Positions 13,481 through 27,139 of a DNA stretch of 27,225 nt are shown in pieces (position 1 is the first letter of the stretch; every line of letters starts with the position of its first letter). A model generated the notes under the pieces. The model was not told the origin of the DNA and did no database searches. It worked only from the letters and a program-made list of their open reading frames with translations. The position numbers and the translations under genes are program-made. The stretch lies in IMG/VR virus record IMGVR_UViG_2541047770_000002; one strand, 5' to 3'. This DNA comes from a virus (lineage: Duplodnaviria; Heunggongvirae; Uroviricota; Caudoviricetes).

Positions 13481-13791
13481 TATTCACTCCAGTACTTTTC
13501 CGGGCGGGCAATACCCGGACCACATTCCACGGTGTATTCCACCAGGTCTACGCCGAGGCGGGTCAGGTCAGCAAACCAGTCGCCAGAAGGTTTTTTCTCC
13601 AGATCAACCATTTTACGGTCAGCCAGATAATCCAGTTCGCGTCGCAGTTCCAGCGGTGTGGTGTCCGGGTAGATGGCACGGGACACATCCAGCAGCAGCG
13701 TCTCGCTGGCGGTGTAAGGGCGGGTCTTGTTCAGGGCAACCAGCAGACTCCAGCGCAGGGATTCGCGGCGTACCCGGGTAATATCGACCAT
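13480..13791 (-). CDS. Hypothetical protein (Mu gp26-position)
   Basis: 103 aa ORF coupled by TAATG overlaps to neighbours on operon strand. Confidence 0.45.
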   Translation of the reverse strand: MVDITRVRRESLRWSLLVALNKTRPYTASETLLLDVSRAIYPDTTPLELRRELDYLADRKMVDLEKKPSGDWFADLTRLGVDLVEYTVECGPGIARPEKYWSE

Positions 13792-14117
13792 TATTGACCT
13801 CCGGTATTGCGGTACTGCTGTACCACTTCCAGTTTGTTATAAAGCGCGTCCAGTTTGGCCTCAATGACTGTCTGGCCACGGATATAATCCTCTCGACGGA
13901 CATAATTCAGCGGTAAATCCGCTTTAAATCGCATAAATTCTTTTTCCAGCTCGCCCCAGTTGGAGGCGGATTGTTGCAGGGCCTGTTCAAGGGAGGCGAA
14001 TCGTGCCGCCTGGCGTTCTTCTGTTTTACTGAACAACCATTTGGCGAGCCCTCCCACAAACCCCATGAAGGTGAGCAGAAAACTCACCACCGTCCAGAAT
14101 TCAACCTGCAGTGTCAT
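13791..14117 (-). CDS. Membrane-anchored coiled-coil protein (Mu gp25-position)
   Basis: 108 aa; N-terminal hydrophobic helix (FWTVVSFLLTFMGFVGGLA) then coiled-coil; ATGA overlap with spanin gene. Confidence 0.45.
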   Translation of the reverse strand: MTLQVEFWTVVSFLLTFMGFVGGLAKWLFSKTEERQAARFASLEQALQQSASNWGELEKEFMRFKADLPLNYVRREDYIRGQTVIEAKLDALYNKLEVVQQYRNTGGQ

Positions 14118-14764
14118 TTCTGTAATCCTTCCCGTTCATCCAGTAACGCGTTTATCTGGTTCCGCCAGCGACGACATTGTCCTGCGTTGTCGATGATGTT
14201 GGCGAGAACGTCACGCTGGGAGACACCCGAATCGCGTAACCGGGTGTCAGTGGTTTCAGGTTGCCCGGTCGCTGTGCCAGAGCGGGTGCCAGCGGCGGCA
14301 ACTGAGTCTGAATGACCGGTGTCGACGGATGCGTTGTCATATCCGAGTGCGGCGTTGTACTGGCGCACGAAACCGCGAGTAAACACGCACTCAATGGGAT
14401 GGCTCTTACCTTTTTCATCAATCCAGCGCTGTGTGACATCGTTAATTTGCCCCTGTAGTTGTTTATTCCGGCTCTCCAGTTGAGCAATCTGCTCAAGATA
14501 ACCGGCTTCAGCCCGCTGCCCGGCGGCCACCTGCTCCTGATACCGTCTGGCCCAGGCCCGCAGCGCAGCATTCTCAAGCGTTGCCTGCTCCGTTTTGTAC
14601 GCGTCAAATGCTGACTGCAACTGACTGAGCGCGGTATCACCGTCACGCTTTGCAGAGTCATGACCACTTCTGTATCCCATGGCATACAGGCCGACCAGAA
14701 AGGCATTGATAAGAATGGCCAGCAGAATGCCGCGCCACGGCAGCTTTTTAACCAGATGCCACAC
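14114..14764 (-). CDS. Rz-like inner-membrane spanin (i-spanin)
   Basis: GTG start at 14764 preceded by GGGGAGG (8-nt spacer); short N-terminus, one TM helix (GILLAILINAFLVGLYAMGY), long periplasmic coiled-coil; directly after endolysin. Track start at 14866 would overlap endolysin by about 120 nt. Confidence 0.6.
   Translation of the reverse strand: MWHLVKKLPWRGILLAILINAFLVGLYAMGYRSGHDSAKRDGDTALSQLQSAFDAYKTEQATLENAALRAWARRYQEQVAAGQRAEAGYLEQIAQLESRNKQLQGQINDVTQRWIDEKGKSHPIECVFTRGFVRQYNAALGYDNASVDTGHSDSVAAAGTRSGTATGQPETTDTRLRDSGVSQRDVLANIIDNAGQCRRWRNQINALLDEREGLQK
14152..14418 (-). CDS. Rz1-like outer-membrane lipoprotein spanin (o-spanin), embedded in Rz gene in +1 frame
   Basis: ATG at 14418 gives MKKVRAIPLSACLLAVSCAS...: lipoprotein-type signal with Cys, proline-rich 88-aa product; wholly inside the i-spanin gene. 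Confidence 0.55.
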   Translation of the reverse strand: MKKVRAIPLSACLLAVSCASTTPHSDMTTHPSTPVIQTQLPPLAPALAQRPGNLKPLTPGYAIRVSPSVTFSPTSSTTQDNVVAGGTR

Positions 14765-15488
14765 AACTGCTGCCTCCCCATGTGAGATATCGCGGTGCCA
14801 GTTCGCGCAGGATGCGCTGCGGATAATGGCGGTTCTCCCGCCAGCTGGCCGCATTGCGTCCGGCATTCACCGTGGCGACATGTCCGAACCAGCGGGTGCT
14901 GTCCAGACCTTTCTGTGATGCAAGCCGCCTGTCCCGTTGTACCCAGCCCAGACCACCGTTATAGCCCGACAGTGTCATGGCCATACGCTCGCAGTCACTG
15001 GCGGCGCTGACACGCTGCCACAGCCAGCGGTCATAGCTGACCAGCGCCCGGATAGCCCATGCCGGATTAAACGGCTCACGACTGCTCAGCATCGGTATCA
15101 ACTGGCTTATCCAGTCGGCAGTGGCAGGCATGAACTGCGCCAGTCCCTGAGCGCCAGCCGGCGAGATCGCATCAGGTCGCCAGCCGCTTTCCTGATGCAG
15201 TTGCGCGGCGAAATCGGCCACCGGCGCAGACAGTCCCCATTCAAGCCGGGCATTACGGATCACATCATCGCGATACTGCAGCGCAGCCTGCGGAGGTTGT
15301 GCTGCGCATGCCTGGCTGAAAAAGCCGCCACACCAGAGCAACATTGCGACAAAGAATACCCATGCCATATGAACCAGAAAGGTCCCGGCGCGGACTGACG
15401 GGCGTTCGGTTCTGATGAAGACCCGAAAGGCTTCGAAAGCCAGTTTCAGGGACATGCATACAATCCAGGTGATCTGCGGCCAGTTCAT
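14748..15488 (-). CDS. Endolysin, soluble lytic transglycosylase (SLT) domain, with N-terminal hydrophobic SAR-like or signal segment
   Basis: Contains the SLT catalytic-region signature ...AQLHQESGWRPDAISPAGAQGLAQFMPATA...; hydrophobic stretch WVFFVAMLLWCGGFFSQACAA near N-terminus; start coupled to holin-like stop (TAATCATG). Alternative start at ATG 15368. Confidence 0.8.
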   Translation of the reverse strand: MNWPQITWIVCMSLKLAFEAFRVFIRTERPSVRAGTFLVHMAWVFFVAMLLWCGGFFSQACAAQPPQAALQYRDDVIRNARLEWGLSAPVADFAAQLHQESGWRPDAISPAGAQGLAQFMPATADWISQLIPMLSSREPFNPAWAIRALVSYDRWLWQRVSAASDCERMAMTLSGYNGGLGWVQRDRRLASQKGLDSTRWFGHVATVNAGRNAASWRENRHYPQRILRELAPRYLTWGGSSCVASG

Positions 15489-15490
15489 GA

Positions 15491-15841
15491 TTAAAGCCCC
15501 ATCGCAACAGCCAGGCAGACCGCTGCAACAATCAGTGCACGGCGAATTAACGCAGCAGAAAACACCAGGTGAAGGCCGGTCTGTACCGGGAAACGCCCTT
15601 CAGCCATCAGCCTGTCGTCATGTTTCAGGTACTGACCAGGACGGGCTTTGGGGAAGAGCGAACGGTCAAGCCAGTAACCCAGCACTGCTGCCAGCGTGAT
15701 GAGTGCCAGCTTGTAGATCACAACAGGCAGCTGCTGTGGTGAGACCAGAGCGATGGTGCCCAGCAACAGCACTGAGGTCAGCAGCCAGCCGCTGAGGCGA
15801 GGTTTTTTAACAGGGGGAATGAATTTTTTCAGGTTTTTCAT
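15491..15841 (-). CDS. Holin-like membrane protein
   Basis: ATG at 15841 with AAGGAGA 5 nt upstream; about 116 aa with three predicted TM helices; first gene of the lysis/late operon immediately upstream of endolysin. Confidence 0.5.
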   Translation of the reverse strand: MKNLKKFIPPVKKPRLSGWLLTSVLLLGTIALVSPQQLPVVIYKLALITLAAVLGYWLDRSLFPKARPGQYLKHDDRLMAEGRFPVQTGLHLVFSAALIRRALIVAAVCLAVAMGL

Positions 15842-21677: not shown

Positions 21678-23447
21678 ATGAATGCTGCCCTGACTGAACG
21701 ACTGGTTTATGTCGCCCGCGCGGCACGTGACGCGGGGCATGGTAAACGCGGTGCAATATACGACGCTGCCTGTGCTGAACTTGGCATGTCCCGCGCCACT
21801 CTGCTGCGCAGGCTGAAGGAGGTCTCTGTGACTGATAAACGCAAAAAACGCGCCGATGCCGGGCGCAGCGCCCTGACCCGCGACGAAGCCGCGCTGATAT
21901 CTGCCACACTGCGTGAGGCCACCCGCAAGAACGGTAAGCGTCTCTATTCCATCGCAGATGCAGTGGAAACCCTGCGGGCTAACGGCTTTATCACCGCAGG
22001 CAGAACAGATGAAACCACCGGTGAGTTTTTCCCGTTGTCTGAAGATGCCATCAGCCGTGCTCTGCGTAACTATGGCCTGCACCCGGAACAACTGGATGCC
22101 CCTGCACCACATACCGAAGTGGCCAGTCTGCATCCCAATCATGTCTGGCAGATTGACGCCTCACTCTGCACGCTTTACTACCTGAGCAATGGACATAAAG
22201 GGCTGCAGGTGATGGACAGCGCGAAGTTCTACAAGAACAAGCCCGCTAACCTTGCCCGTATCGCCAGTGACCGCGTGTGGAGTTACGAGATTACCGACCA
22301 TGCCAGCGGCTGGATTTACGTTGAGTATGTGACGGGCGCGGAATCCGGTGAGAACCTGTGTTCTGTGCTTATCAACGCCATGCAGGAGCGTGGCGGCGCA
22401 GACGTGCTGCACGGCGTGCCGAAAATACTCTATCTCGACCCCGGCTCGGCAAACACCGCGGGTATGACGAAAAACATGTGCCGCTCACTGGGCATCGACC
22501 TGATAGCGCACAAGCCGCATAACGCCCGCGCCACCGGACAGGTGGAAAAGGCGCGGGACATTATCGAACGCAAGCTGGAGCCGGGTCTGAAGTTCCGGCC
22601 GGTTCACAGTCTGGAAGAACTCAACGCGCTGGCCGCGAAATGGCGCAGCCACTTTAACGCCACGGCTGTTCACAGCCGCCACGGTAAAACCCGCACGGAT
22701 ATCTGGCTGAAGATTACTGCTGAGCAGCTGAAAAAAGCGCCTCCCGTTGAGGTATGTCGTGAACTGGCTGTGGCGGCACCAGAACTCCGCAAAGTCACGC
22801 CAAAACTTCGTGTCTCGTTCCGGGGCACTGAATTTGACGTATCAACGGTACCGGGCGTACTGGTTGGTGAAAAACTGATGATTACCCGTAACCCATGGCG
22901 CAGCGATGTGGCACAGGTGGTTCTGACCGGTGAGGACGGCCACGAGACGTTCTTCCTGGTCGAAGAGGTCAGAAAGAACGAGTTTGGCTTTGCTGAAGGC
23001 GCGGCGGTATTTGGCGAAAGTTACAAAGCCCTGCCGGAAACCCCGGCACAGATGGCGGCAAAAGAAACCGAAGCGCTGGTTACCGGTACAGACAACGCCG
23101 CAGATGCAGCCGCCGCACGCAAGGCGAAGGCGCTGCCGTTCGGCGGGCGGCTTGACCCGTATAAACATATCGACGACACCACACTTCCGGCCTATATGCC
23201 GAAGCGTGGTCAGGCCTCTGACGTACGCGGGCCGCGCACTGAACAACGTCCCATGACTCATGTGGAGGCCGCGAAAGCCCTGCGCGATAAGTTCAGCGCC
23301 GACGGCCTTACCTGGACGCCGGAACATTACCGCCAGTTAACGGCACAGTACCCGGACGGCGTACCGGAAGCCGCACTGGATGAAGTCATGGCCACGCTGA
23401 CCACACCGGCCCGCAGCAGTGTTATCAGCATTGTTAACGGCAACTGA
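21678..23447 (+). CDS. DDE transposase (Mu A-like)
   Basis: 589 aa; GGAGG 9 nt before ATG; immediately followed by AAA+ ATPase partner; HVWQIDAS-type segment consistent with DDE integrase/transposase core. Confidence 0.8.
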   Translation: MNAALTERLVYVARAARDAGHGKRGAIYDAACAELGMSRATLLRRLKEVSVTDKRKKRADAGRSALTRDEAALISATLREATRKNGKRLYSIADAVETLRANGFITAGRTDETTGEFFPLSEDAISRALRNYGLHPEQLDAPAPHTEVASLHPNHVWQIDASLCTLYYLSNGHKGLQVMDSAKFYKNKPANLARIASDRVWSYEITDHASGWIYVEYVTGAESGENLCSVLINAMQERGGADVLHGVPKILYLDPGSANTAGMTKNMCRSLGIDLIAHKPHNARATGQVEKARDIIERKLEPGLKFRPVHSLEELNALAAKWRSHFNATAVHSRHGKTRTDIWLKITAEQLKKAPPVEVCRELAVAAPELRKVTPKLRVSFRGTEFDVSTVPGVLVGEKLMITRNPWRSDVAQVVLTGEDGHETFFLVEEVRKNEFGFAEGAAVFGESYKALPETPAQMAAKETEALVTGTDNAADAAAARKAKALPFGGRLDPYKHIDDTTLPAYMPKRGQASDVRGPRTEQRPMTHVEAAKALRDKFSADGLTWTPEHYRQLTAQYPDGVPEAALDEVMATLTTPARSSVISIVNGN

Positions 23448-24836: not shown

Positions 24837-26378
24837 ATGCCAACAGTTCCAATTTCTATGAGAAAACTTAAAGAAATTCTTAGGCTTAAATACGGTGTTG
24901 GACTCAGCCATCGACAAATTGGTCGTAGTCTTGCAATCTCCCCTTCCGTTGTATCCAGATATGCTAATCGGGCGGCTCAACTTGGCATAAAGCAGTGGCC
25001 CTTACCTACAGGATGGGATGATACAAAACTAAAACATGCGTTCCTTCAGACCCAGGTTAAGATGAAGAAGCACTCTCTGCCTGACTGGGCTACAGTACAC
25101 CGGGAACTGCGTAATAAATGCGTGACGCTGCAGCTACTCTGGGAAGAATACTGTGAGCGTAATCCAGGCGGTTTTTACAGCTATAACCATTACTGCCGGA
25201 TGTACCGTGAATGGCTCAAAACCACTTCACCATCAATGCGTCAGGTACATAAAGCTGGCGAAAAACTTTTCGTTGATTACTGTGGACCTACCGTTGGCGT
25301 TACCGACCCTGAGACCGGAGAAATAAAAACTGCTCAGGTCATCGTAGCTGTTCTCGGGGCATCAAGTTACACATGGGCAGAGGCCACCTGGTCTCAGCAG
25401 CTTGAAGACTGGGTGATGAGTCATGTTCGCTGCTTCCAGTGGTTGGGTGGCGTTCCTGAACTTGTTGTTCCGGACAATCTGAAAAGCGCCACATCCAGGG
25501 CATGTAAGTATGATCCTGACGTTAACCCTACCTACCAGCAGATGCTTGAGCATTATAATGTCGCAGTTTTGCCTGCGCGGCCACGTAAACCGAAAGATAA
25601 AGCCAAAGCTGAAGTTGGCGTTCAGGTTGTTGAACGCTGGATCATGGCCCGAATCAGGCATGAGATCTTCTACAGCCTTGCATCGCTTAATCAGCGCATT
25701 CGGGAGTTGCTGGAAAGACTGAATAACAAAATAATGCAGAAGTTGGGTTATTCACGTGCAGAACTCTTCATCCAGCTTGATAAACCCGCACTGAAGCCTC
25801 TTCCTGAAGCCAGTTACAGTTACACCCTGGTGAAGAAAGTCAGAGTTCATGCCGATTACCACGTGGAAATCGACAAACATTACTACTCGGTTCCATGTTC
25901 GCTGTTAGGCCAGCAACTGGAAGCATGGATCTCCGGAGAACTGGTAAGACTCTTCAATCAGGGGCAGGAGGTTGCTGTGCACCCGCGCAAGCGTACTTAT
26001 GGCTACAGTACCCGCAACGAGCACATGCCTGAAGCTCATCGACAGCATGCCACCTGGACGCCAGAGCGTCTTCTGGAATGGGCGGGGCACATAGGCAGTG
26101 AAACTCATAGTTATGTGCTTCATATACTGAACTCTCGTCCACATCCGGAACAAAGCTATCGCTTCTGCCTTGGACTCCTGAACCTTCATAAAAAATACAG
26201 TAAAGCCAGACTTAATGCAGCATGTGCAAGAGCTCTGAAAACAAAGGTATGGCGTCTGTCAGGTATTAAATCGATCCTGGAAAAAGGTCTGGATAAACAA
26301 CCTGTTCAGGATCCAAAACCAGATCTGTTATCCACGATGGAACACGAAAACGTACGCGGCAGTGAGTATTACCACTGA
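24837..26378 (+). CDS. istA: IS21-family transposase IstA
   Basis: 513 aa; N-terminal HTH (GLSHRQIGRSLAISPSVVSRY), DDE-type core; followed 11 nt later by istB. Confidence 0.85.
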   Translation: MPTVPISMRKLKEILRLKYGVGLSHRQIGRSLAISPSVVSRYANRAAQLGIKQWPLPTGWDDTKLKHAFLQTQVKMKKHSLPDWATVHRELRNKCVTLQLLWEEYCERNPGGFYSYNHYCRMYREWLKTTSPSMRQVHKAGEKLFVDYCGPTVGVTDPETGEIKTAQVIVAVLGASSYTWAEATWSQQLEDWVMSHVRCFQWLGGVPELVVPDNLKSATSRACKYDPDVNPTYQQMLEHYNVAVLPARPRKPKDKAKAEVGVQVVERWIMARIRHEIFYSLASLNQRIRELLERLNNKIMQKLGYSRAELFIQLDKPALKPLPEASYSYTLVKKVRVHADYHVEIDKHYYSVPCSLLGQQLEAWISGELVRLFNQGQEVAVHPRKRTYGYSTRNEHMPEAHRQHATWTPERLLEWAGHIGSETHSYVLHILNSRPHPEQSYRFCLGLLNLHKKYSKARLNAACARALKTKVWRLSGIKSILEKGLDKQPVQDPKPDLLSTMEHENVRGSEYYH

Positions 26379-26389
26379 TACGGGATCCA

Positions 26390-27139
26390 ATGATGAATCA
26401 TCTTTACGAACAACTGACCGCACTTAAACTCACCGGCTTCCGTGATGCGCTTAAAAAGCAACTTGCTCAGCCGGGCACATACCAGGAGCTGGGCTTCGAA
26501 GAACGCCTGTCATTACTGACAGCAGAAGAACTAACCTGCCGTGAAAACAGGAAGGCAGAGCGTCTGATCAAACATGCACGGTTCAGACTTAATGCTGAGT
26601 TATCAAAGCTGGATTATCGTAACAATAGAGGGCTGGACAGGGCCCTCATCCGTTCACTCAGTCAGGGAAACTGGTTAACCCTGAAACAAAATATTTTACT
26701 GACCGGGGCCACCGGCAGCGGTAAAACGTTCCTGGCATGTGCACTTGGTCATAATGCCTGCCGACAGGGATACAAGGTCTACTATTATCGCCTTAAAGCG
26801 CTGATGGAACAGTGCTATCAGGGGCATGCTGATGGAAGATACAGCAAACTTTTGACCAGGCTGAATAATAGCGATCTGCTGCTTCTGGATGACTGGGGGC
26901 TGGAACCTCTCTCATCAGAACAGCGTAGCGACCTGCTGGAAATAGTGGATCTGATGTACCAACGAGGCTCAATCATCGTAGTGAGCCAGTTGCCGGTGGA
27001 AAACTGGTACAAAATGATCGGAGACTCCACACATGCGGATGCCATCCTAGATCGACTGGTTCATGGCAGTATCAAGATCGAACTTAAAGGAGAATCAATG
27101 CGGAAAATACAATCTCCGTTGACCGAAGGAGATCAGTGA
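26390..27139 (+). CDS. istB: IS21-family helper ATPase IstB
   Basis: 249 aa; Walker A LLTGATGSGKTFLACALG, Walker B LLLLDDWG; canonical IstB size. Confidence 0.85.
   Translation: MMNHLYEQLTALKLTGFRDALKKQLAQPGTYQELGFEERLSLLTAEELTCRENRKAERLIKHARFRLNAELSKLDYRNNRGLDRALIRSLSQGNWLTLKQNILLTGATGSGKTFLACALGHNACRQGYKVYYYRLKALMEQCYQGHADGRYSKLLTRLNNSDLLLLDDWGLEPLSSEQRSDLLEIVDLMYQRGSIIVVSQLPVENWYKMIGDSTHADAILDRLVHGSIKIELKGESMRKIQSPLTEGDQ

Follow-up and report, generated by a model that had tools for sequence, protein, structure and literature searches.

The pair of genes described here lies in a 27,225 nucleotide (nt) stretch of viral DNA, IMG/VR record IMGVR_UViG_2541047770_000002, the whole of which is referred to below as the window. 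We consider it very probable, on the basis of sequence comparison, that the pair encodes the two-component spanin of a BcepMu-like transposable prophage of Escherichia coli, in which the gene for the o-spanin, a predicted outer membrane lipoprotein, is embedded within the gene for the i-spanin, a predicted inner membrane protein. The evidence that carries this assignment is the geometry of the two genes, the localisation signals of their products, the homology of both proteins to catalogued spanins and the purifying selection that acts on both reading frames. All features of the pair are on the minus strand of the window, in the lysis cassette of a phage with a Gram-negative host (E. coli) and directly 3' of genes for a Holin_2-3 holin and an SLT endolysin.

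The i-spanin gene (14114..14764) is 651 nt long, begins with a GTG and ends with a TGA, and encodes a protein of 216 residues that RefSeq gives with the same coordinates as WP_000264664.1. It shares its first 17 nt with the 3' end of the endolysin gene, and the sequence ATGA holds both its stop codon and the ATG of the next gene. The o-spanin gene (14152..14418) is made up of 88 codons followed by a TAA. Its ATG is found at offset 346 of the GTG-started gene, which places it in the +1 frame, and it stops 38 nt short of where the outer gene ends and so is fully embedded, occupying 0.53–0.94 of the i-spanin length. This is the arrangement that the initial annotation of the DNA had claimed, namely an 88-codon open reading frame (ORF) in the +1 frame lying wholly inside an i-spanin gene.

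The product of the embedded gene begins MKKVRAIPLSACLLAVS|CASTTP..., where the bar precedes Cys18, the residue predicted to be lipidated and to become the first of the mature protein. The lipobox (L-A-V-S-C, residues 14–18, 14365..14379) was assigned by a pattern rule modelled on PROSITE PS51257; the sequence has a Lys or Arg in the n-region, no charged residue between positions −10 and −1, one of Ala, Gly or Ser at −1 and the cysteine at position 18. It aligns with LAAG|C in the o-spanin of phage B3 and LSA|C in that of BcepMu, and the cysteine is invariant in the homologues. A lipoprotein signal on the embedded ORF had been part of the initial annotation, and both the rule and the invariant cysteine bear it out. 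The residue at +2 is an alanine, so that the o-spanin carries no inner membrane retention signal. When all six frames of the window were considered, the embedded ORF was the only one with a lipoprotein signal in or near the cassette. The mature protein has 71 residues, of which 11 are Pro, 12 Thr and 8 Ser. The mature part is thus rich in Pro, Thr and Ser, and the earlier description of the product as proline-rich stands for a proline content of 15%, below the 25% of lambda Rz1.

The outer gene product matches PHROG 1403, named ‘Rz-like spanin’, at 6.8e-92, with residues 3–216 aligned to positions 4–212 of a 212-position profile. Hydropathy and an AlphaFold2 (AF2) model both point to a single N-terminal transmembrane domain followed by a largely helical periplasmic part. 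The transmembrane segment (GILLAILINAFLVGLYAMG, residues 12–30, 14675..14731) has a Kyte-Doolittle maximum of 2.15 over 19 residues and is preceded by K6, K7 and R11, which predicts an N-in/C-out signal anchor. In the AF2 model, which was built from the single sequence, has a mean pLDDT of 64.6 and was used for secondary structure only, its confidence being insufficient to search by fold, this segment falls within a long helix of residues 10–118, which is followed by a low-confidence region of residues 121–179 and a second helix of residues 183–215. The low-confidence region (14228..14404) is a linker rich in Gly, Ser, Thr and Pro, with pLDDT below 50 for residues 121–165, 167–170 and 173–179 and a Pro, Gly, Ser and Thr content of up to 50% over residues 151–180. 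The C-terminal helix (14120..14218) includes Cys197 and lies in a part of the model where the block-mean pLDDT is 53 over residues 181–190 and 71–79 over residues 191–216. The protein has no lipobox, although it is named a lipoprotein in databases, and the o-spanin has no C-terminal hydrophobic segment; neither protein thus has the form of a unimolecular spanin of the T1 gp11 type.

Both proteins have homologues among catalogued spanins. In BLASTP comparisons with the BcepMu proteins, the sequences of which were taken from the supplement of PMC6139136 (Table S1, which also supplied the B3 o-spanin), the i-spanin matched gp23 at 1e-10 and the o-spanin matched gp24 at 6e-6. A tblastn search with the i-spanin returned 57 distant phage homologues of 29–34% identity, mostly from B3-like phages of Pseudomonas and including B3 ORF27. 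B3 and its relatives matched at 1e-7 to 1e-9, several of the homologues are annotated as ‘Rz-like spanin’ or ‘putative Rz lysis protein’, and the record for B3 ORF27 (‘Rz-like spanin’) itself mentions similarity to the Rz and Rz1 proteins of BcepMu. For the o-spanin, a profile of ten enteric sequences was compared with a profile of the BcepMu, B3 and Pseudomonas-type sequences, giving an hhalign match (probability 97.2%, E 3.7e-11, 68 columns) that covers the lipobox and a common motif, LPP.L..RP....L.P.Y. The homology of both proteins, the frame, the relative position and the neighbourhood all agree in placing the pair in the BcepMu gp23/gp24 and B3 spanin family. The spanin identity proposed in the initial annotation is likewise borne out by PHROG 1403, by the BcepMu and B3 matches and by the succession of holin, SLT endolysin and spanin.

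Conservation of both reading frames

An ORF of this length within another gene could arise by chance, and the codons of the i-spanin gene were replaced synonymously according to the codon usage of the window to give 20,000 resampled versions. An ORF of at least 88 codons beginning with ATG was present in the +1 frame of 22% of these versions, while a lipoprotein-like ORF was present in only 0.44%. The length of the o-spanin ORF is by itself weak evidence for coding, and it is the comparative evidence that is decisive.

The comparison was made with 63 enteric loci from E. coli, Klebsiella phage KP12, Pantoea, Buttiauxella and Erwinia, in which the i-spanins are 71–100% identical, and with a distant set of about 30 loci in which the i-spanin identity is 30–42%. 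Most of these loci came from a scan of viral contigs and eight from a scan of genome contigs. A +1 lipoprotein ORF was found in every complete locus, approximately 90 in all and covering 30–100% i-spanin identity, and in the enteric set it always contains 88 codons (63/63). One locus of the comparison (L067, IMGVR_UViG_2898975184_000011, 1501–2091) has an i-spanin stop 17 codons early, while the o-spanin frame is intact and runs past this stop; its i-spanin gene is either a damaged copy or naturally shortened.

The mean pairwise diversity at positions 1, 2 and 3 of the i-spanin codons was calculated for the 41 distinct enteric sequences. Upstream of the overlap the values are 0.147, 0.096 and 0.277, the normal pattern in which position 3 is the most variable. 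Over the o-spanin signal peptide they drop to 0.008, 0.003 and 0.039, with both frames nearly frozen. Over o-spanin residues 19–64 the pattern changes to 0.188, 0.049 and 0.076, and the most variable position is now position 3 of the o-spanin codons, while over residues 65–88 the values of 0.061, 0.070 and 0.191 follow the phase of the i-spanin again. Amino acid identities follow the same division: over residues 19–64 the o-frame is 0.892 identical and the i-frame 0.793, which is the i-frame minimum, and over the tail of the o-spanin the i-frame is 0.907 identical and the o-frame 0.747.

Diversity by codon position and the identities in the two frames together define a conserved o-spanin core, residues 19–64 (14227..14364), which carries the motif LPPLAPALAQRPGNLKPLTPGYA and is coded mainly within the i-spanin linker. 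The core coincides with the part of the i-spanin that is predicted to be disordered, and the variable tail of the o-spanin overlies the C-terminal helix of the i-spanin. Both frames are under purifying selection, and the constraint is split along the shared DNA: over the o-spanin signal peptide neither frame changes much, over the o-spanin core the o-spanin frame is dominant, and over the C-terminal helix of the i-spanin dominance returns to the i-spanin frame, with the o-spanin tail free to vary.

Several points weigh against the assignment of the pair as a spanin with an embedded, translated o-spanin. Chi-square tests on the counts of variable sites gave p = 0.04 and 0.02, which is of modest significance and indicative only, since the tests take the sites of related sequences to be independent. 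The lipobox has an Ala at −3, which the PROSITE rule allows and which falls outside the narrower consensus [LVI][ASTVI][GAS]C. Ribosome-binding sites are weak at both candidate start codons of the o-spanin. The o-spanin has no significant match in PHROG: scans with it, with BcepMu gp24 and with the B3 o-spanin gave only weak matches to other spanin PHROGs (E 0.016–0.59), of which none reached the default cut-off of 0.001, and the o-spanin family is not represented in that database. In Pfam and NCBIfam scans neither protein matched the families of lambda Rz and Rz1, the i-spanin giving only a sub-threshold match to OmpH and the o-spanin nothing. The BcepMu and B3 pairs were themselves assigned by bioinformatics only, as far as could be found in the literature, and the AF2 model of the i-spanin has the limits given above.

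A rival explanation would be that the +1 ORF is an untranslated by-product of the codon and amino acid composition of the i-spanin gene, and that the phage uses the i-spanin alone or together with another outer membrane factor. The frequency with which resampling produces a +1 ORF of sufficient length fits this idea, as do the weak ribosome-binding sites. So does the finding that the +1 frame of the window allele is open for 203 codons (14152–14781), of which most is clearly non-coding, since homologues carry stops in it. Against it stand the rarity of lipoprotein-like ORFs among the resampled versions, the retention of the ORF, the lipobox and the RPG..L[TIV]P.Y motif in loci where the i-spanins share only 30–42% identity, the +1 phase of diversity over the core together with the greater conservation there of the o-frame than of the i-frame, and the lack of any other lipoprotein ORF in or near the cassette. 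We give this explanation hardly any credence. An open +1 stretch of 203 codons was seen in none of the resamplings (0/20,000). The full stretch, with the ATG at 14781 (an ORF of 209 residues), was also considered as a coding sequence (CDS) and was rejected, as Escherichia phage PhiKM and KP12-type homologues carry stops upstream of the o-spanin start.

Start codons of the two genes

The outer frame is open as far as an ATG at 14866, and the maximal ORF of 14114–14866 would encode 250 residues. The GTG at 14764–14762 is in the same frame and lies 8 nt 3' of a GGAGG (14777–14773), which is part of a Shine-Dalgarno (SD) sequence GGGGAGG at 14773..14779 that reads GGGGAGG or GGGGGGG in the enteric homologues. 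The GTG is invariant in 61 of the 63 enteric loci, and the upstream purine-rich box is kept. The two exceptions are a locus with an Arg in place of the Trp after the start (L024), which the script left unscored, and the locus from Erwinia tracheiphila. This stretch also codes for the C-terminus of the endolysin, so that its conservation alone is no proof of either an SD sequence or a start codon.

Translation from the ATG at 14866 would add an N-terminal extension of 34 residues to the i-spanin. The frame is open from that position and the resulting reading (MPDAM...) is kept in many close relatives. However, 13 homologues, the KP12, Pantoea stewartii and Buttiauxella loci among them, have a TGA seven codons ahead of the GTG and no intervening ATG, and in Erwinia tracheiphila the start is an ATG at the position of LPWR, where the frame has been open for just four codons. 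Both RefSeq (WP_000264664.1) and the PHROG 1403 profile begin at the GTG. These four observations are the reason for rejecting the ATG, a start there being extremely unlikely. Two further points argue in the same direction: the DNA that would encode the extension belongs to the 3' end of the endolysin gene, which is read in a different frame, and the ATG is preceded only by a poor GGTG at 2 nt. The initial annotation had preferred the GTG with its strong SD over the upstream ATG, and the homologues, the database call and the profile side with that choice.

For the o-spanin there are also two candidates. The ATG at 14418 gives the 88-codon form, and another ATG in the same frame, at 14439, would lengthen it to 95 codons beginning MSHSAGLMKKVR..., with the same architecture and an identical mature lipoprotein. 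BLASTP places residue 1 of the longer form on residue 1 of BcepMu gp24 (MSRANT...), the Pseudomonas-type homologues begin MSR or MYR at 26–28 residues ahead of the cysteine, and an AGGGG is found 11 nt upstream of the ATG at 14439. On the other side, the first seven residues of the longer form contain no Lys or Arg, whereas the MKKVR that follows from 14418 is a textbook n-region, and an internal Met is present at the corresponding point of BcepMu gp24. Conservation cannot choose between the two ATGs, since they both fall within a nearly invariant stretch. We regard a start at 14439 as a genuine possibility that falls somewhat short of an even chance, and the 88-codon form is used here.

Comparison with known spanins and predicted function

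BcepMu and its relative phiE255, as well as the B3 group, were filed as embedded two-component spanins in the survey of Kongari et al. 2018 (PMC6139136). The closest parallel to the pair described here is BcepMu gp23/gp24, in which a Mu-like genome encodes homologous proteins in the +1 arrangement, next after its holin and SLT endolysin. The BcepMu o-spanin occupies 0.51–0.94 of the i-spanin gene (Table S4, PMC6139136), compared with 0.53–0.94 here, and the tail is 38 nt in both. The sequences are only about 32–35% identical, and the proteins differ in size and cysteine content: the E. coli i-spanin has 216 residues and two periplasmic cysteines and that of BcepMu 199 residues and one, while the mature E. 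coli o-spanin has 71 residues and no periplasmic cysteine and mature gp24 has 56 residues and one.

The Pseudomonas phage B3 and its group (JBD18, JBD25 and JBD67) have i-spanins, ORF27 in B3, that are 31–33% identical to the E. coli protein over more than 90% of the length. They also have a +1 lipoprotein ORF, which is unannotated in B3, with the same CA[ST]T.P start and a PPAL.QRPG...LTP.Y motif, and the same neighbours, namely a holin, a transglycosylase, a membrane protein and gp26-like and gp27-like proteins. The o-spanin of B3 is longer, at 102 residues, and has one periplasmic cysteine. In B3-type phages, as in the B3 locus (1456–2067), the last 7 nt of the o-spanin gene lie beyond the stop of the i-spanin, so that it is strictly overlapped, whereas three loci of a Tom33 type, BcepMu and the enteric phages have embedded o-spanins. 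According to the 2018 survey, in which B3 is counted as embedded, embedded spanins and other architectures do not occur together in any family (PMC6139136).

The number of periplasmic cysteines also varies among these homologues. In the enteric phages the i-spanin has two and the o-spanin none (62/63 loci); in the i-spanin of the window these are C126 and C197, and the mature o-spanin has none beyond the lipidated cysteine. BcepMu and Pectobacterium have one in each subunit, and the Tom33-type loci have two in the i-spanin and one in the o-spanin. The disulfide that joins homodimers may have moved between the spanin subunits. At least one periplasmic cysteine was present in either subunit of 507 of the 528 systems surveyed, which is also the case here, and 124 of 526 o-spanins had no periplasmic cysteine (PMC6139136); an enteric o-spanin without one is within this known variation. 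A broader reading of the family is evenly balanced in our view. In this reading, a single homologous spanin family would cross the boundary between embedded and overlapped architectures, would have relocated its capacity for a periplasmic disulfide and would hand constraint from one frame to the other, with the core of the o-spanin written into the disordered linker of the i-spanin and its C-terminal 24 residues perhaps little more than read-through.

Another embedded pair is lambda Rz/Rz1, whose mechanism is experimentally established and forms the basis of inference for the prophage pair (PMC6139136). As in lambda, the i-spanin gene contains the whole of the o-spanin gene in its +1 frame, from near the middle to near 0.9 of its length; the i-spanin has the same layout of transmembrane segment, helix, linker and helix (PMC6139136) and two periplasmic cysteines; and the o-spanin is a Pro-rich lipoprotein without predicted structure. 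Sequence homology to the lambda proteins is not detectable with Pfam, the prophage proteins exceed those of lambda in size (216 and 71 mature residues against 153 and 40), and the prophage o-spanin has no counterpart of the cysteine through which Rz1 forms its homodimer disulfide. In its architecture and predicted function the pair would be a functional analogue of Rz/Rz1 that lies outside their Pfam sequence families.

Mu provides a second comparison, in this case by description. Its gp23/gp23.1 is a spanin pair of a transposable phage that likewise comes after the endolysin and before the gp25–27 region, and it has been shown genetically to be necessary for lysis and to be replaceable by lambda RzRz1 (PMC9239132). 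The Mu cassette differs in having a lysozyme-type signal-arrest-release (SAR) endolysin and no holin, in contrast to the SLT enzyme and the Holin_2-3 protein of the E. coli prophage. The spanin of D108, a relative of Mu, is entered as overlapped instead of embedded (Table S4, PMC6139136).

By analogy with lambda Rz/Rz1, T4 PseT.3/PseT.2 and Mu gp23/gp23.1 (PMC6139136, PMC9239132) we infer that the pair is expressed, that the o-spanin is lipidated and that the two proteins form a complex that fuses membranes. The i-spanin would sit in the inner membrane with a short cytoplasmic N-terminus and one transmembrane helix, and would extend into the periplasm as a long helix, a flexible linker and a C-terminal helix. 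The o-spanin would be exported as a prolipoprotein, lipidated at Cys18, cut by signal peptidase II to remove its signal and sorted to the outer membrane. The two would then bind at their periplasmic ends and bridge the periplasm, passing through the mesh of the peptidoglycan. After destruction of the peptidoglycan by the holin and the SLT endolysin, the freed complexes would be expected to collapse and to fuse the inner and outer membranes, and this fusion would be the final step of lysis.

Annotation and surroundings of the cassette

In RefSeq, PhiKM and KP12 the outer gene alone is annotated, as ‘lipoprotein’ or ‘putative lipoprotein’, and the protein cluster that contains the i-spanin has 822 member sequences, all named ‘lipoprotein’ or ‘hypothetical protein’. 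The embedded CDS was annotated in none of the records checked. A collection of 15 billion proteins contained neither the exact 88-residue nor the exact 95-residue o-spanin sequence, and a homology search of 5.8 billion clusters returned only seven odd or fragmentary calls. That gene callers would miss an embedded frame of this kind had been anticipated in the initial annotation, and the absence of the exact products and the records that carry only the outer gene are what it anticipated. The missing annotation fits the 2018 survey, in which 196 of the 528 o-spanins were unannotated (PMC6139136). The pair is an unannotated addition to a family of embedded spanins that is already catalogued, and it extends that family by an enteric clade that is well sampled. 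A systematic error in a common E. coli prophage would be corrected if the outer gene were renamed ‘i-spanin’ and an ‘o-spanin’ CDS were added. The pair raises no new question about lysis. It illustrates cleanly how constraint is shared between two overlapping genes.

The cassette is the lysis cassette of a common BcepMu-like, that is Mu-type and transposable, prophage of E. coli. The interval 14114–14866 occurs in 637 of 5426 complete E. coli genomes (~12%). The region is 99.5% identical to PhiKM, which is classed as a Bcepmuvirus, and about 88% identical to KP12 and Phi06_2974 B. The order of genes on the minus strand is holin, SLT endolysin, spanin pair, a membrane protein of 108 residues, a Mu gp26-like protein of 103 residues and a homologue of Mu gp27, and elsewhere the window contains genes for a tail sheath, a major head protein, a protease, a portal, a terminase and transposases.

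A cassette found so often in bacterial chromosomes could in principle belong to a decaying remnant, with genes that are intact by descent and no longer used. The prophage occurs in many E. coli genomes and some copies are damaged; in E. coli 510016 (NZ_CP025851, 2887–3753) IS100 cuts the gp27-like (DUF3486) gene, and the L067 homologue has the truncated i-spanin described above. On the other hand, the near-identical PhiKM was deposited as a phage from uropathogenic E. coli, purifying selection acts on both frames across genera, and the structural and transposition genes of the window are intact. We judge the remnant explanation to be very improbable.

The holin (15491..15841, minus strand) has 116 residues when read from the ATG used by RefSeq, where it is named ‘putative holin’, and matches PF13272 (Holin_2-3) at 1.5e-41 and the holin PHROG 1528 at 7.5e-55. 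The endolysin (14748..15488, minus strand) is an SLT lytic transglycosylase that matches PF01464 at 1.8e-14 and the endolysin PHROG 669 at 3.8e-69. It has a basic N-terminal extension of 36 residues followed by a hydrophobic segment (approximately residues 37–62) that ends ...SQACA|AQPP. This segment could be either a SAR domain or a cleavable signal, and a start at the internal Met41 would give a plain signal peptide.

The gene downstream of the spanin pair (13791–14117, minus strand), whose ATG overlaps the i-spanin stop, encodes the 108-residue membrane protein, which has a transmembrane segment at residues 7–25 and is otherwise helical and charged. PHROG 462 names it ‘lipoprotein’, yet it contains no cysteine. 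Its location corresponds to that of Mu gp25, the releasin, and Pfam gave no match to DUF2730 even at E values of up to 10. A releasin role is unsupported, as the protein resembles gp25 only in position and N-terminal transmembrane topology (PMC9239132).

At the other end of the window, beyond the phage transposase at 21678–23447 (PHROG 310), a second transposase-like gene (513 residues, PHROG 1157) and an ORF of 249 residues follow each other on the plus strand at 24837–27139. They may be a separate insertion element or encode a second transposition protein of the phage.

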